Assembly (NCBI GenBank): GCA_963733195.1
Contig: CAVTCR010000086.1
Location: forward strand, 1 to 64,000
Reading direction: 5' to 3'
DNA length: 64,000 nucleotides
Source: an uncultured delta proteobacterium
Lineage (GTDB): Bacteria > Desulfobacterota > Binatia > Bin18
Part shown: positions 33,583 through 39,488 of the stretch, in pieces
Layout: every line of letters begins with the position of its first letter
How positions within the stretch are numbered: the first letter of the stretch is position 1
Notes under the pieces: model-generated
Told to the model about the DNA's origin: nothing
What the model saw: the letters and a program-made list of their open reading frames with translations, nothing else
The model's database searches: none
Made by a program: the position numbers and the translations under genes

Positions 33583-34308
33583 TTAGTGTGGCTGGACCCT
33601 ATACTCTACTAACTCAGTCACGCTCTTGATGGGAGTCCCCTCGCCTTCATCACTTATCGCGCGTACCAAACCGACCCCTGGGGCGTACCATTCAGTGTGA
33701 TGTAAATCAAACGACGTCAGTTTTTTGGTCTTGGGATCGGGAAGCTGGTTAGCAGTCACCGTCTCAACTCGCAAACAGTTACGAAACACCCCCCCAACAA
33801 CGCGGACTTCTTCTGGATCAATCCGCGCCGTGGCAACGGAACTTGAATGCTGCCGCCCGCTTAGCGGCCATATGTCCGCTTGCGTCTGTATTGGCCAGGT
33901 TGCCTCTCCCAGATACGGGCTCGGAAGAATCTGCTCTGCTCCCTGGCCAAGTTTGGTATCCCAGACTTTCGTACCATTGGAATCGAGCCACGGGTAACGA
34001 TGCAGAAAACCGTCCTTGCGAAAGTATGCAACCGTACTTTTCGCCTCTGGTGCGGTGGTTGTTAGCGGTTCGTACTCCTCGGAAACGACAAACGACTTCC
34101 CGCCGGGGAGTTGTAACCCATCATCAACAACGGTCTCGGTCATGTAGTAGATATAATCCCCACCAGAAAACACCACCAAATGCTTCCAGCGGTTGTTTTT
34201 TGCCAGCGGGAAGAAATCAGGCACCTCGGGAGATTTGGGCGCCAGCGTGAAAGCAACTGCTACGACCACGAGGAAGAGAGAGGAGATTGTGGTGAGCGTT
34301 TTCAGCAT
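33583..34308 (-). CDS. Hypothetical exported beta-rich protein
   Basis: N-terminal hydrophobic segment, FFPLA..N.W, EEVRV.GG.F.NC, WYAPGVGLV. Confidence 0.7.
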   Translation of the reverse strand: MLKTLTTISSLFLVVVAVAFTLAPKSPEVPDFFPLAKNNRWKHLVVFSGGDYIYYMTETVVDDGLQLPGGKSFVVSEEYEPLTTTAPEAKSTVAYFRKDGFLHRYPWLDSNGTKVWDTKLGQGAEQILPSPYLGEATWPIQTQADIWPLSGRQHSSSVATARIDPEEVRVVGGVFRNCLRVETVTANQLPDPKTKKLTSFDLHHTEWYAPGVGLVRAISDEGEGTPIKSVTELVEYRVQPH

Positions 34309-34414
34309 GTGGGTACTATACTGTGTGGGGTGTCGTCGAGCAACACAAAAATATCAAGAAACCAGTTTTCACAAATTGCCCCGTTGGGGGTCTTGTGTAT
34401 ATGTGATGGGAGCA

Positions 34415-35011
34415 ATGAGCGTTCGACAACAACAGGAACAGAAGCTCCCCTTTGTGGAGATTGTCTCCCTCCACCAGGAGGCGGTGTACGGGTATTTGTT
34501 ACGTTTCACTCGCAATGTCCATGATGCGCAGGATCTGTTTCAGGAGACGTTTCTGCGAGCGTATCGTGCCTACCCTGCACTCCCAAGAGATGCTGACGTC
34601 CGTGCTTGGCTTCTGCGGATTGCAGTGAATGTCTCAAAAAACTATGTACGTGATCGTCAACGCCGCACCAGGGTATTAGTCGATGAAGAACAGGGACAAG
34701 GCAATGATAGTTCAGTATCTACGAAAAGCACCACAGATACGGAGCAAACCATGATTGCACGTGAAACAGCCCGAACTCTCCTAGCAACGATTGAGACTCT
34801 GCCGTTTCATCAGCGATCAGCATTGGTTCAACGGCAATTTGAAGGGCTCGATTACGACACGATTGCGAACAATCTTGACTGTTCCCCAGAAAGTGCACGA
34901 GCACATGTCTACCAAGCCTTACGCAAACTCCGTCTTTCACTCTCTTCGGATAATTCGCAGTCAACAATTCTTCCTCAGCAATCGTTCGCCCCTTCTCGTC
35001 AATCGGAGTAA
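34415..35011 (+). CDS. ECF RNA polymerase sigma factor
   Basis: Region 2 DAQDLFQETFLRAY, AWLLRIAVN; region 4 LPFHQRSALV..EGLDYDTIA...SARAHVYQALRKLR; start 34406 or 34415. Confidence 0.92.
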   Translation: MSVRQQQEQKLPFVEIVSLHQEAVYGYLLRFTRNVHDAQDLFQETFLRAYRAYPALPRDADVRAWLLRIAVNVSKNYVRDRQRRTRVLVDEEQGQGNDSSVSTKSTTDTEQTMIARETARTLLATIETLPFHQRSALVQRQFEGLDYDTIANNLDCSPESARAHVYQALRKLRLSLSSDNSQSTILPQQSFAPSRQSE

Positions 35012-35015
35012 CACT

Positions 35016-35984
35016 ATGCGAAACAATTCTGTACGTCGGCTTCTCTGCGGTTTTACGGAAAATGATCTCATTGCCGAAGCTTTTGGCGAGGCTCCATCCC
35101 ATACGAGTCTTCGCGTCCGTACGCACTTGCTTGGTTGCACTTCGTGTCCTGCGCTGTTGGAACAATACCGTTCTTTACACCAGCAATTGATTGACTTATC
35201 AAATCAAGGAGACTCTATGCGTGGGTTACCAGAAGCTCGGCGTGCTCTTGATCATCATTTTACGAATCAGACCCGCCCTCGCCTGTTCCTTGATGTATGG
35301 CACTCTCCCGTGGGTGATATCCGCATCGGTAAGACGGACAAAGGCGTGGCACTGGTGGAGTTTGTCCGGTCAGATGAGAAGAAATCACCGGGTGATTCTT
35401 TACAGGAAACATTTACGATCGAGCATGACAGTACAGCGGTTGCCGACCTCACCAGAAAGTTGGAGGACTACTTCGACGGGAAACGACAAAACTTGGACTG
35501 GATCGTTGATGACACTTTGATGCGAAGCGATTTTCAACGTGAGGTTTTACGAGCCACCACCGAAGTCCCTTATGGTACGGTAGTAACGTACCAGAGCATT
35601 GCCGACACAATTGGTCAGCCTAAAGCTGTGCGCGCAGTAGCGCAGGCGCTTCGGTACAATCCGATCCCTATTCACATCCCGTGTCATCGTGTGATCGGCA
35701 GCGATGGAACACTCACCGGCTATGCAGGAAATTTGACAGCCATCAAAAAGCAGATTCTCGCAGTCGAAGGCATCCCGGTAGTGGAAAATGTGAAAGGACT
35801 CGTAATTGCCAAAGAACGGATGTATGTCGGCTGGCGGCATGACCGCTGCTTCTGTCTCCCGCGTTGTCCGTCGCTTAAGGGACAATCAGCTGGGGACCGA
35901 GCGTTTATTCCCTCACGTGCACGCGCTGAAGTGATGGGATATGCCCCATGTGACGTATGTCAACCACACATGCATGCATTGTGA
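35016..35984 (+). CDS. ogt: Fusion of zinc anti-sigma (zf-HC2) domain, methylated-DNA-protein-cysteine methyltransferase and Ada-type Zn domain
   Basis: HLLGCTSC; FQREVL..VPYG...AVRAVAQAL..NPIPIHIPCHRV; FCLPRC...GYAPCDVCQP; GGAG SD, 4 nt after sigma stop. Confidence 0.88.
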   Translation: MRNNSVRRLLCGFTENDLIAEAFGEAPSHTSLRVRTHLLGCTSCPALLEQYRSLHQQLIDLSNQGDSMRGLPEARRALDHHFTNQTRPRLFLDVWHSPVGDIRIGKTDKGVALVEFVRSDEKKSPGDSLQETFTIEHDSTAVADLTRKLEDYFDGKRQNLDWIVDDTLMRSDFQREVLRATTEVPYGTVVTYQSIADTIGQPKAVRAVAQALRYNPIPIHIPCHRVIGSDGTLTGYAGNLTAIKKQILAVEGIPVVENVKGLVIAKERMYVGWRHDRCFCLPRCPSLKGQSAGDRAFIPSRARAEVMGYAPCDVCQPHMHAL

Positions 35985-36003
35985 CTAATTAACAGGAGGA
36001 GTT

Positions 36004-36396
36004 ATGGCAGGCATTGATCATACGATTATCACCGTCAACAACTACGAACAGGCGAGTCGTTTCTATGGTTGGCTCATGCCAAAGATCGGCTATGCGGGTG
36101 GCGAACAGGACTACGGCAGTATGAAGGGCTGGATGGGAAAGGGTATGAGTTTTTGGATTAAGAAAGCAGACGCACGTTTTGCTTCCGACACATTCAATAA
36201 AGACCGGGTTGGCATCTGTGAAATCGCCTTCAAAGGGGACAGTCGTGCCCAGATCGATTCCCTAGCGAAGGACATCGAAGCGCAAGGTGGAAAAATTCTC
36301 GATCCGCCAAAAGAGTACGATTACGTTCCTGGTTATTACGCCGTGTTTTTCGCTGATCCGGATGGGATCAAGTTGGAAGTCGTGCATGTTCCGTAA
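36004..36396 (+). CDS. VOC/glyoxalase family protein
   Basis: GIDH.IITV, YYAVFFADPDGIKLEVV. Confidence 0.88.
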   Translation: MAGIDHTIITVNNYEQASRFYGWLMPKIGYAGGEQDYGSMKGWMGKGMSFWIKKADARFASDTFNKDRVGICEIAFKGDSRAQIDSLAKDIEAQGGKILDPPKEYDYVPGYYAVFFADPDGIKLEVVHVP

Positions 36397-36466
36397 GACA
36401 GCGACATTGTAGGGGCACGGTGATGCCGTGCCCTGTGACAATGCGAGTACAAAGAAAGAAGAGAAC

Positions 36467-36787
36467 ATGGCTGTCTTTGCTATTTTCACTTATGACGTGA
36501 AACCAGGGCGGATGGGCGATTTTCTGGCAAAGCTTGGGGAAGCGGCCAGTCCGAAGTTCAACAGCTCAGTCATGCCAAAATCGGTTCGCCTGTTCCGCAA
36601 TACGGTGCCAGGGCCAGACTCGAACTCAGTCATTCTCTTTATTGAATATGAAGATATGGCCGCGTACGGTGCGCGCACGACGTTTGAGAATGGTAGCCAG
36701 GAGTGGAAAGCACTTTTTGCCAGCAAATCAGATTCTCCAGAAACGCTCGTGTCTGTGCAATTACTGACCGAATTCACTCCGCAGTAA
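36467..36787 (+). CDS. Hypothetical dimeric alpha/beta-barrel-like protein
   Basis: YDVKPGRM..F, IEYEDMAAYG pattern. Confidence 0.6.
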   Translation: MAVFAIFTYDVKPGRMGDFLAKLGEAASPKFNSSVMPKSVRLFRNTVPGPDSNSVILFIEYEDMAAYGARTTFENGSQEWKALFASKSDSPETLVSVQLLTEFTPQ

Positions 36788-36938
36788 TGCGAAGGAGGTC
36801 CGAAGAGTGACTCCAGAAGACTTTGCCCGAAAGATCAACGAATGGGCCCGTGGGACTTATGATTGAGAGTCACGGCACAAGATTCCTCTCCGCTTCCGCG
36901 CTTGTGCAAACGCCCCCTTTGGTATACACAGCCCAACC

Positions 36939-37835
36939 ATGAAACCAGTGATCGCCGTCGGTACTGGGCTGTTCATTGTGCTGCTCGGCTTCTTATCTCT
37001 GAGTTGTAACCGGTCCGAACCCACACAACCTTCACCTATCACACAAGCCCCTTCCACTGACAAAGACTCTCCTACCGACCAGCCGAACACTGGCTCTGCA
37101 CCACAAGACCTGCAAAAAGATGTCGATGCAATTATCCACGCAGTGGAGGCACTGGATGTTCCGCAGGCGTTAGCAGGTTATGCAGAGGATTACACGAGTG
37201 GCACTGGTCGTTCGAAAGATAGCGTGCGTGAAGTATTGACTCGACTGCAAGAGGGCCATGTCAATATCACAGTGGAAAAGACGGAGATCGAAGAAGCTAC
37301 CGCAGACAAAGCGAAGATGAAGACTCAGATTCGTCTCCGTTACAAAGATACTTTCCGTGATATGGCCGAAGGTGAAGTGATCGTCACTGATATTCTTCGT
37401 CACTTCTTGCGCAAAGAGAACGATCATTGGAAGATTTACACCGACGAGCGACTCTCGACCTATCGTGAAGGACGCTTTGGTGAACAGTCTCCAAACATAC
37501 GGCTCGAGGTGCCGGCGAGACTACCTACGGACACGAGTTATCCCGTTACTGTTTCCGTTCAACGAGATGCGGACAAGAATTACCAAGTGATGGTTGGTCA
37601 CTATCCAGAGGATCCTGCATTCCTTCCGCCTCCTGATGTTGTGACTGAGCTTCCCGAGGACGGCGTCTTGACGGCGAATCTGCCGCGCAACCAAAACGGT
37701 GAGAGCGAAATGGTGCGGATCACCGTGATTGTCGAAGATCGGGAAGGTAACTGGGTAGGCACAACGACGGTGTCAAAGTTTGTTCCCGGCCTACAGCAAG
37801 GAAAAGAAGACGAAGAGGATCAAGCTGTCATTTAA
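36939..37835 (+). CDS. Lipoprotein with NTF2-like domain
   Basis: LSLSC lipobox, Pro/Thr linker, YAEDY...LRKENDHWKI. Confidence 0.65.
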   Translation: MKPVIAVGTGLFIVLLGFLSLSCNRSEPTQPSPITQAPSTDKDSPTDQPNTGSAPQDLQKDVDAIIHAVEALDVPQALAGYAEDYTSGTGRSKDSVREVLTRLQEGHVNITVEKTEIEEATADKAKMKTQIRLRYKDTFRDMAEGEVIVTDILRHFLRKENDHWKIYTDERLSTYREGRFGEQSPNIRLEVPARLPTDTSYPVTVSVQRDADKNYQVMVGHYPEDPAFLPPPDVVTELPEDGVLTANLPRNQNGESEMVRITVIVEDREGNWVGTTTVSKFVPGLQQGKEDEEDQAVI

Positions 37836-37841
37836 CTGTTG

Positions 37842-38219
37842 ATGCATTCCACGATGGCCGAGCGTCGCCCTCGTTTTTACACCTATGTGTATCGCCTTGT
37901 AGCCCAGGTGCCCAAAGGTAAAGTCGTCACTTATGGTCAGGTGGCAGCACTCCTTGGCGTTCCGCGTGCCGCGCGCGCTGTGGGGATGGCTCTTCGTTAT
38001 CTTCCCCGTGAGCTCTCACAACAAGTTCCCTGGCAGCGAGTGATCAATTCCTCGGGAGGAATCAGTATTCGCGGTGACGTCATCCGCGTCGAGGAACAGC
38101 GCTGGTTGTTAGAGCATGAAGGCATCAGATTTGACCGCTCTGGGAAGGTCGACCTGAAAAAATATTGCTGGCAAGGACCGAAGCAGGTTAGACCACCAAA
38201 ATGGAAAGCGAAGCTCTAA
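37842..38219 (+). CDS. atl: Alkyltransferase-like (ATL/YbaZ, MGMT family) protein
   Basis: VPKGKVVTYGQVA...ARAVG, VPWQRVINS (Trp replaces the acceptor Cys). Confidence 0.88.
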   Translation: MHSTMAERRPRFYTYVYRLVAQVPKGKVVTYGQVAALLGVPRAARAVGMALRYLPRELSQQVPWQRVINSSGGISIRGDVIRVEEQRWLLEHEGIRFDRSGKVDLKKYCWQGPKQVRPPKWKAKL

Positions 38220-38250
38220 ATTGAACGATAAAGGGTTGATCCAGCGGACT

Positions 38251-38364
38251 TGTCACCCTGAGTGAAACGAAGGGTCTCTCAGAGAGATTCTTTGCGGAGC
38301 CTGTCCTGCCTGCGCCAGTGCCGCAGGCACAGGTGAGCGTAGTCGAAGGGGGCTCAGAATGACA
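38251..38364. repeat. Composite palindromic REP-like element
   Basis: TGTCACCCTGAG...CTCAGAATGACA with nested inserts. Confidence 0.8.
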
Positions 38365-38411
38365 CGCCGAAGGGCTGTAGCGTCAAGTGTACGAATGACA
38401 TGTACTCTGGA

Positions 38412-39488
38412 TTAGCCGACTTCTTTCCACTCACCAGTACGAAAAAACTCCTCCATCTGGTCGTAGTAGGGCTGGATATTGTACCCGCCGGTTTTTAGCC
38501 ATTCGTCGTTATAGTAAGTGTGGAGATAACGATCCCCAGGATCACAGATCAGCGTGACAACAGAGCCGTGACGGTGTTGCTTCTGCATTTCTGCAATCAG
38601 TTGAAGAACACCAAAGAAGTTTGTCCCGGTTGAACCGCCGCATTTGCGCCCAATTACCCGATGCAAGAACCGCAGCGCAGCAAAGCTGGCAGCATCAGGT
38701 ACTTCGATCATACGATCAACGATGTCGGGCAAAAAAGATGCTTCTACTCGGGGCCGTCCAATGCCTTCTACTCTAGAACCAGTTTGGTAAACTATGCTGT
38801 GATCTCGAGTCCGATAGAAATCGCCATACACCGAGTGCTCGGGATCAACAACACAGATACGCGTATGCGCGCGACGATAACGCACATAGCGTCCAAGAGT
38901 GGCTGAGGTACCGCCAGTGCCAGCACCACAAACAATCCATTCAGGAATTGGGTGCTCCTCTGCTGCCATTTGGGCGAAGATCGATTCCGCAATGTTATTA
39001 TTGCCACGCCAGTCGGTCGCACGTTCAGAGTAAGTGAATTGATCCATAAAATGGCCGCCGGTTTCAGCAGCTAATCGCCGGGACTCGGCGTACACTTCAG
39101 CAGGGGTTTCGACCAAGTGACAGCGACCACCATAAAACTCAATGAGCGCAATTTTCTCAGGTGAAGTCGAGCGTGGCATAACAGCAATAAAACGAAGGCC
39201 CAGGAGCTGGGCAAAGTACGCCTCTGACACTGCGGTTGACCCTGACGAGGCTTCCACGACTACCGTATTTTCATGAATCCAGCCGTTACACAGCGCATAG
39301 AGAAAGAGCGATCGTGCTAATCTATGCTTGAGACTTCCAGTTGGGTGAATCGATTCGTCCTTGAAGTAGAGCGTAATACCCGGCACAGATGGTATGATCA
39401 GCCTGAGCAAATGTGTGTCAGCGGAGCGATTGAAATCCGCTTCAATCTTCCGTATGGCTTCGTTCACCCAATCACGTTGGAGCGCCAT
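38412..39488 (-). CDS. cds1: PLP-dependent cysteine synthase family, Cds1-type cysteine desulfhydrase
   Basis: [40 protein letters not shown]. Confidence 0.82.

Follow-up and report, generated by a model that had tools for sequence, protein, structure and literature searches.

A candidate sigma-based response to DNA alkylation in Binatia, with a suicide repair protein as putative anti-sigma factor

The only bacterial adaptive response to alkylation that is well understood, to our knowledge, works through Ada. Relatives of this protein include the split AdaA/AdaB of Bacillus and the AdaA-AlkA of Mycobacterium. According to one review, only about 17% of sequenced genomes may have kept an Ada of the E. 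coli type (PMC7617703). A 2022 review describes, in its entry on group ECF122, extracytoplasmic function (ECF) sigma factors that lack a cognate anti-sigma factor and have 6-O-methylguanine DNA methyltransferases as conserved neighbours and an "unknown mechanism", with a protein from Cellulomonas (Actinobacteria) as the example (PMC8999054). Here we analyse a 64,000-nucleotide stretch of DNA (the window; contig CAVTCR010000086.1 of assembly GCA_963733195.1) from an uncultured soil member of the Binatia, in which an ECF sigma gene is directly followed by a gene that fuses a putative anti-sigma domain to an O6-alkylguanine-DNA alkyltransferase and an Ada-type zinc domain. We regard it as moderately probable that the pair provides an adaptive response to alkylation that works through a sigma factor, with the suicide repair protein as its anti-sigma factor.

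The sigma gene occupies positions 34415..35011 of the forward strand, from an ATG at 34415 to a stop codon at 35009-35011, and encodes 198 amino acids (aa). Pfam recognises Sigma70_r2 (E 4.3e-17) and Sigma70_r4_2 (E 2.1e-10), and the NCBIfam model sigma70-ECF scores 85.2 bits vs a cut-off of 42.9. The protein has the hallmarks of an ECF sigma factor, i.e., regions 2 and 4 alone within about 200 aa. It is separated by 4 nucleotides (nt; CACT) from the gene of the fusion protein (35016..35984, same strand), whose ATG at 35016 is preceded by GGAG 8 nt upstream. The fusion protein has 322 aa and is predicted to be soluble, as its highest 19-residue Kyte-Doolittle mean (1.52) is too low for a membrane helix. 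The first-pass annotation, made from the letters of the window, had described an ECF sigma gene and, 4 nt behind it, a gene for a soluble protein of 322 aa with an N-terminal zinc anti-sigma motif (HLLGCTSC), a complete O6-alkylguanine methyltransferase (PCHRV), and a C-terminal segment resembling Ada (FCLPRC...GYAPCDVCQP). This layout and all three segments are borne out by the analyses below.

Residues 95-253 of the fusion protein (35298..35774, +) make up a complete predicted O6-alkylguanine-DNA alkyltransferase with its N- and C-domains, as judged by Pfam, NCBIfam, PDB profiles, and Foldseek. Both domains are above the Pfam cut-offs: Methyltransf_1N covers residues 95-161 (24.3 bits vs a cut-off of 21) and DNA_binding_1 covers residues 172-253 (E 1.2e-30). 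PDB profiles match this part of the protein with an E-value of 3e-25, and Foldseek aligns it with the OGT of M. tuberculosis (E 1e-10, 31-33% identity). The active site PCHRV lies at residues 222-226; among 46 sequences P222, C223, H224, and R225 are invariant and V226 is kept in at least 90%. Further downstream, residues 266-317 (35811..35966, +) correspond to an Ada-type Cys4 zinc domain, which is recognised by Pfam, profile matches, residue alignment, and Foldseek. The family Ada_Zn_binding scores 28.5 bits (cut-off 23) over profile positions 14-64 of 65, N-Ada profiles (1adn, 1u8b, 1zgw, and 1wpk) match at E-values of 0.004-0.012, and the C-terminal domain is placed on 1u8b by Foldseek with a probability of 1.0. 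The motifs FCLPRC (residues 279-284) and GYAPCDVCQP (308-317) carry C280, C284, C312, and C315, which align with C38, C42, C69, and C72 of Ada in a residue alignment to 1adn. The protein terminates 5 residues past the zinc domain, and no helix-turn-helix (HTH) family is found among its Pfam matches at E<=1.

The N-terminal residues 1-92 (35016..35291, +) resemble class I zinc anti-sigma domains in their motif, in profile matches, in fold, and in a model of the complex with the sigma factor. The motif HLLGCTSC (residues 37-44) is part of C11-x25-H37-x3-C41-x2-C44, i.e., an HxxxCxxC preceded at about 23-26 residues by a Cys/His ligand, with a spacing of 25 that is also found in the Acidobacteriota and Chloroflexia partners described below. 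Across an alignment of 115 sequences, H37, C41, C44, C223, H224, C280, C284, C312, and C315 are retained in 100% and C11 in 98%. A PDB profile search with the whole protein gave no anti-sigma match at E<=1. The best PDB match for a profile of 23 N-termini of the family was the anti-sigma factor ChrR (E 0.0044, residues 14-85 on ChrR 8-80), followed further down by RslA (0.21) and DdvA (0.63), with unrelated TFIIS chains in between. The Pfam family zf-HC2 matches 17 of 23 family N-termini at E<=1, the best of them at 2.9e-6. The AlphaFold model of the N-terminus has four helices (15-22, 28-40, 44-63, and 70-83), and a Foldseek search with the model of the N-terminus alone places ChrR (probability 0.98) and RslA in the top 7 positions; lower down, DdvA (rank 9) and MucA (rank 16) are interspersed with unrelated entries.

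Modelling of the complex between the sigma factor and this domain, which the first-pass annotation had suggested, supports binding of the sigma factor by the N-terminus at the level of prediction. For the sigma factor we used an alignment of 18 sequences, and for residues 1-92 of the fusion protein one of 46. The pair reached a median score of 0.83, vs 0.01 for the best of 3 controls; this mark is reached by 58 of 80 solved complexes and by 2 of 110 mismatched pairs, a rough yardstick since we used our own alignments. At least 97% of the contacts recur between runs, and the predicted local distance difference test (pLDDT) of the partner is at least 92. On the sigma side, the predicted contacts involve residues 14-50 in region 2 and 115-177 in region 4, which is the pattern of class I anti-sigma complexes, and the modelled helix 4 of the anti-sigma domain (70-83) touches region 2. 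The N-domain of the alkyltransferase, whose first strand runs from residue 89 on, is linked to this helix by only about 5 residues, with a conserved RPRL.

The association between the sigma factor and the alkyltransferase extends well beyond the window. The first-pass annotation had proposed to look for the same architecture and the same synteny with the sigma gene in other genomes, and the pairing recurs in both sets that we searched. The sigma gene is directly upstream of the fusion gene in the loci of 19 out of 20 relatives, the 20th being cut by the end of a contig. A search with the sigma alignment of species-representative genomes resulted in 80 loci being kept, of which 67 have an open reading frame (ORF) containing an alkyltransferase right after the sigma gene. 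The three-domain form accounts for 42 of these 67 partners (Binatia and two Methylomirabilia). In 4 others (Binataceae), a short N-terminus precedes the alkyltransferase and the Ada-type zinc domain, and 19 (Anaerolineales and one metagenome-assembled genome [MAG] of Actinomycetota) consist of an N-terminus of about 40-70 residues with no zinc motif and of the alkyltransferase only. Contig ends truncate the last 2. Of the 13 loci that lack a partner of this kind, 1 is truncated and 12 have the most distant sigma factors (25-38% identity, tblastn E-values of 8e-22 or weaker). A second search added partners from Acidobacteriota and Chloroflexia/Thermomicrobiales, with C-x25-HxxxCxxC and the alkyltransferase, and no Ada-type zinc domain. 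Taken together, 85 of the 87 partner ORFs linked to the sigma factor have PCHR, and contig ends truncate the remaining 2; 63 of the 87 carry the zinc anti-sigma motif and 46 the Ada Cys4 site. The sigma family and an alkyltransferase-containing gene occur together in records labelled as at least 5 phyla, and the helix ARAHVYQAL of sigma region 4 is invariant across the phyla compared.

What stays constant in the pairing with this sigma family is the alkyltransferase, and the zinc ligands and the Ada-type zinc domain are clade-specific. For this reason, an anti-sigma factor of Ogt type that later gained the Ada-type zinc domain fits the data better than a rewired Ada. The first-pass annotation had seen the two methyl-acceptor modules of Ada in reversed order, with an anti-sigma domain in the place of the AraC output. 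The reversed order and the lack of an HTH stand, but the pattern across phyla favours the Ogt-type origin.

The partners of the Binataceae (L074, L076, L080, and L082) have only about 45 residues, devoid of Cys and His, ahead of the alkyltransferase and keep the Ada-type zinc domain. A Chloroflexia MAG has two ORFs in the place of a single partner gene, one for the anti-sigma domain and one for the C-domain of the alkyltransferase (L147 3010-3414 and 3437-3760); a frameshift or a stop could be the cause, or the form may be truly split. The names of taxa were taken from the titles of the records, and some are plainly wrong. Full triple fusions are found on contigs with titles such as "Klebsiella pneumoniae" or "uncultured Enterobacteriaceae" (L028, L030, L031, L037, L048, and L062). 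The sigma factors of these mislabelled-looking contigs are 53-70% identical, and both sigma factor and fusion match the Binatia form.

A candidate ECF-type autoregulatory promoter precedes the sigma gene (34367..34393, +). It consists of TTTCACA (-35), 14 nt, and GGGTCT (-10), and its end is 21 nt 5' of the ATG. Blocks of the form TTTCACA-N14-G(G/T)GTCT are kept upstream of the sigma gene in the loci of 17 relatives, with variable spacers and flanks, and the -35 element TTTCAC is the best-scoring site upstream of the sigma gene in Anaerolineales, in Binataceae, and in 1 of 2 Methylomirabilia loci. The geometry TTTCAC-N17-GTCT is in keeping with that of ECF promoters.

The genome from which the window comes (G000; 6.9 Mb, 93% complete) has four exact matches to the strict pattern, one of which is the sigma factor's own. 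The best supported of the other three (C72:18416-18442, minus strand) is located upstream of an unlinked stand-alone ogt gene (L025 4866-5394 = C72:17865-18393, minus), with 18 nt between its end and the start of the gene. Directly after this ogt comes a gene for a protein of 103 aa that is an Ada_Zn domain only (23.4 bits; L025 4541-4852, minus). The fusion protein and this small protein are the only two Ada_Zn matches in the genome, both are tied to the motif, and we found no regulator of the Ada/AdaA type in the 93% of the genome that is covered. The motif is also directly upstream of stand-alone ogt in G002, G010, G011, and G016 (scores 15.7-25.2), which, with G000, makes five genomes from 3 genera. 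The background in G000 amounts to 17 sites above a score of 15 in 13.9 million positions. Because the sigma factor's own promoter motif recurs before an unlinked ogt, these sequence data support a regulon whose output concerns alkylation repair. New elements of this analysis are the promoter motif, the second operon (ogt and the small Ada-Zn gene) that carries it in a genome where no Ada-type regulator was found, and the argument across phyla for the alkyltransferase as the core of the sensor.

Other features were seen around these sites. A small gene comparable to that of G000 follows ogt in G011 (L123 1253-1573). A gene for an HhH-GPD glycosylase (Pfam E 1.4e-15; AlkA-like by our own reading) is encoded at L025 2687-3337 (+), convergent with the ogt/Ada-Zn operon and about 1.2 kb from it; no promoter motif was found for it. 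Another operon preceded by the motif comprises one or two short-chain dehydrogenases (SDR) and an SRPBCC (Polyketide_cyc2) protein and is orthologous in three genera: L209 434-1198 (G003), L210 1716-3779 (G010), and L211 488-2579 (G011). In G010 this operon has two copies of the motif about 800 nt apart. The SDR/SRPBCC genes have no orthologue above 50% identity in G000.

The remaining matches were not retained as members of the regulon. The other two matches to the strict pattern (C60 and C71) have an unrelated ORF of 142 aa or nothing behind them, and the further matches to the position-weight matrix (on C30, C33, C50, C69, C71, and others) are intragenic or are not followed by any repair gene. 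An epoxide hydrolase gene was rejected as a target: it has the motif in G002, which we take as chance, and of its orthologues in G000 three have no motif upstream and the fourth has a weak intragenic match.

These data can be combined in a mechanism in which the repair protein is the anti-sigma factor, a reading we favour because the alkyltransferase is invariant, the promoter targets are alkylation-repair genes, and alkylation destabilises alkyltransferases. In unstressed cells, the N-terminal zinc domain would clasp the co-translated sigma factor between regions 2 and 4. Upon DNA alkylation, the alkyl group would be moved irreversibly onto C223, and in this clade the Ada-type zinc site may also accept the methyl group of a phosphotriester on C280. 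The spent fusion protein would then release the sigma factor or be degraded, because alkylated alkyltransferases are destabilised and open up and because the link to the anti-sigma domain has only about five residues. Alkylation of members of this family has been described as disrupting the interaction between the N- and C-domains and as leading to degradation (section 3.3 of PMC10779285). Alkylation and release may be coupled through the short link between helix 4 and the alkyltransferase. The free sigma factor would read TTTCACA-N14-G(G/T)GTCT promoters, i.e., that of its own operon, which would provide fresh sigma factor, fresh fusion protein, and probably the products of the downstream VOC and alkyltransferase-like (ATL) genes, and that of the unlinked operon of ogt and the small Ada-Zn gene. 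Once the damage is gone, newly made unmethylated fusion protein would recapture the sigma factor. Within this scheme, we infer that alkylation is the signal and that it releases the sigma factor, as well as the identity of the decisive cysteine and the route of release.

Several observations weigh against this interpretation. In the profile scan suggested by the first-pass annotation, DNA_binding_1, Methyltransf_1N, and Ada_Zn_binding are above their cut-offs, but zf-HC2 scores 11.2 bits on the whole protein and 14.3 bits (E 0.045) on residues 1-92 alone, both below its cut-off of 22.2. The Foldseek E-values for the N-terminus are all 0.32 or worse. The high score of the complex model may mirror a likeness to solved ECF/anti-sigma complexes (e.g., ChrR-SigE and RslA-SigL); because such complexes are solved, it speaks for likeness and is not a proof of binding. 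The stand-alone ogt of G000 is frameshifted in the assembly: near L025 5170-5180 it splits into two overlapping frames, of which one encodes the N-domain and the other the PCHRL C-domain. In G002, from the same genus, a single frame holds the whole gene, and the split in G000 stems from an assembly error or marks a recent pseudogene. Before stand-alone ogt, 16 of the 20 relatives (of g3, g8, and further genera) have no motif with a score above 11, and the wider regulon is therefore lineage-specific. The SDR/SRPBCC operon that the motif precedes in G003, G010, and G011 has no evident link to DNA repair. Finally, zinc-thiolate anti-sigma domains can react directly with electrophiles, and repair domains need not be the sensor.

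The last point leads to an RsrA-like thiol switch, in which oxidants or electrophiles, alkylating agents included, would attack C11, C41, and C44, zinc would be lost, and the sigma factor would be freed, with the repair domains as cargo made in step with it. This fits the invariance of the zinc-ligand motif in this clade, and soluble class I anti-sigma domains are described as enriched in zinc motifs and often linked to redox sensing (PMC7406223). We nevertheless find it unlikely: 24 of the 87 partners lack HxxxCxxC (in Anaerolineales, Binataceae, and the Actinomycetota MAG) and keep the sigma factor and the alkyltransferase, whereas PCHR is lost in no complete partner. Moreover, the promoter targets found are ogt, the Ada-Zn gene, and in relatives the SDR/SRPBCC genes, and there are no genes of thioredoxin type among them.

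The Ada-type zinc domain might itself be the switch, as in Ada. The methyl group of Sp-methylphosphotriesters would be transferred to C280, the loss of charge would re-target or rearrange the protein and free the sigma factor, and the alkyltransferase site would serve repair only. The four invariant cysteines aligned with those of Ada and the match of the fold to 1u8b, the complex of methylated N-Ada with DNA, are what one would expect in this case, and methylation of N-Ada is described as an electrostatic switch (PMC7617703). Against this, the domain is missing in 41 of the 87 partners (Acidobacteriota, Chloroflexia, and Anaerolineales), and C280 is for that reason not the common switch of the family. 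In addition, the family profile is matched only at positions 14-64 of 65, and no DNA-reading HTH follows the domain. We give this explanation a low probability.

A broader proposal retains both acceptor sites in an irreversible "consumption sensor" with two inputs, in which spending the protein on O6-alkylguanine (C223) or on methylphosphotriester (C280) would free the sigma factor. Such a sensor would provide the adaptive response of Binatia in place of Ada, with simpler forms in Methylomirabilia, Acidobacteriota, and Chloroflexota. We put this forward tentatively, as a possibility somewhat short of probable.

A further explanation involves no damage sensing at all. The fusion protein would be a constitutive buffer of the sigma factor, providing negative feedback, or would free it upon an unrelated signal, e.g., by regulated proteolysis, and the fusion would serve to fix the ratio of repair protein to sigma factor. 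In its favour, induction by alkylation is something that we infer, and the contigs from RNA libraries cover positions 35442-35821 only, which is too little to show transcription, a start site, or regulation. We consider this account quite improbable, since it leaves unexplained why an irreversible single-turnover enzyme should be the invariant partner across at least 5 labelled phyla and why the promoter recurs before ogt.

The least credible alternative, that an assembly or indel artefact joined separate genes, has a practically negligible probability and is excluded by the many homologues of 319-337 aa, the copies in complete genomes, and the independent contigs without gaps. At least 120 homologues are among the matches listed from the protein collection, with 58-99% identity and nearly all of 319-337 aa; those with names are methyltransferases from MAGs of Binatia or "Deltaproteobacteria". 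About 30 of 61 genomes of the same class, some of them complete single-contig genomes of relatives, encode the protein at full length (E below 1e-88, with essentially the entire query aligned). Contigs from three independent public DNA runs cover the locus: one of 1471 nt spans 34370-35840 with 22 substitutions, one of 596 nt spans 34495-35090, and one of 256 nt spans 35725-35980. All three are free of gaps, and there are no insertions or deletions among the differences listed. The fusion, for which the first-pass annotation had named an indel as a possible source, hence stands.

The module has several neighbours. Downstream of the fusion gene on the same strand are a gene for a VOC/glyoxalase-family protein (36004..36396; Pfam Glyoxalase, 5.5e-10), 19 nt after the fusion gene and in an equivalent position in 8 related loci, and one for a small NIPSNAP/ABM-like protein (36428..36787; Pfam NIPSNAP, 1.5e-5). 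They are followed by a gene encoding a 298-aa protein of no known family (36939..37835), without Pfam match and with an N-terminus that we read as lipoprotein-like. In 27 related loci a copy of this gene separates the fusion gene from the ATL gene. The ATL gene (37839..38219, +; DNA_binding_1, Pfam 2.7e-25) starts 3 nt after it and has PWQRV in the place of PCHRV. A copy of the PWQRV type is found downstream on the same strand in 29 related loci, and directly after the fusion gene in one genus. Upstream, a divergent gene (33583..34308, -) encodes a protein of 241 aa with only a weak DUF3108-like match, and its position is kept in 40 related Binatia loci. The conserved placement of the 241-aa and 298-aa neighbours around the module may reflect shared ancestry only. 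A scan of positions 34000-38600 for sigma-70 promoters gave 0 sites, and the 7 terminator-like sites in this interval are within about 1.4 standard deviations (SD) of the mean of shuffled sequences (4.3, SD 2.0).

If the preferred reading is true, the signal is the irreversible consumption of a repair protein that inhibits a sigma factor, a logic unlike that of Ada. It would explain the induction of repair in several soil phyla without Ada, provide a concrete mechanism for ECF122, listed as of "unknown mechanism", and add a new class of sensor to the anti-sigma factors. Were the sensor to have two inputs, the alkyltransferase would be a signalling protein in its own right and the pair an orthogonal sigma switch that could be triggered by compounds of the benzylguanine type. 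The promoter motif and the regulon of two operons render the idea directly testable in a heterologous host.

The comparison with described systems begins with ECF122. The first-pass annotation knew of no characterised example of the wiring. Our literature search found no experimental study of a pairing between an ECF sigma factor and an alkyltransferase anti-sigma factor, but the association of sigma factor and methyltransferase is in print as ECF122 (PMC8999054); the wiring is thus catalogued and not wholly unrecorded. Going by the description in that review and not by group models, the locus resembles ECF122 in having an ECF sigma factor with a conserved MGMT neighbour, and differs in that the methyltransferase bears a recognisable zinc anti-sigma domain and an Ada-type zinc domain. 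Our search across phyla with the sigma alignment returned no locus from Cellulomonas. The main text of the classification paper (Casas-Pastor et al. 2021, PMC7826278) contains neither methylguanine nor methyltransferase nor ECF122, a group that its supplements may describe. EndoV and a histone-like domain are named as fusion partners in a review of the alkyltransferase family, in which a term search for the word "sigma" gave no match (PMC10779285).

Among characterised proteins, E. coli Ada has the same two suicide methyl-acceptor modules, the Cys4 zinc site and the PCHRV alkyltransferase, which we know here from sequence, and they are likewise coupled to the expression of alkylation-repair genes, including that of their own gene. 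In contrast with Ada, the fusion protein has the reversed domain order, no HTH of AraC type, and no match to the first 13 positions of the Ada_Zn profile. Its output would be the release of a sigma factor, not the binding of a promoter by the methylated protein, and it would be shut off by resynthesis of the unmethylated inhibitor. With RsrA of Streptomyces and ChrR of Rhodobacter it shares a soluble class I domain with C/H-x25-HxxxCxxC, encoded right after the sigma gene, and predicted contacts with sigma regions 2 and 4. The sensor of RsrA is a thiol-disulfide switch and ChrR has a cupin domain, whereas the sensor part would here be a suicide enzyme of DNA repair. Stand-alone Ogt/MGMT proteins, such as M. 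tuberculosis OGT (PDB 4bhb/4wxc), have the same two-domain fold and active site, but the protein described here has about 90 extra residues at its N-terminus and about 65 at its C-terminus, and it is genomically locked to a sigma factor.

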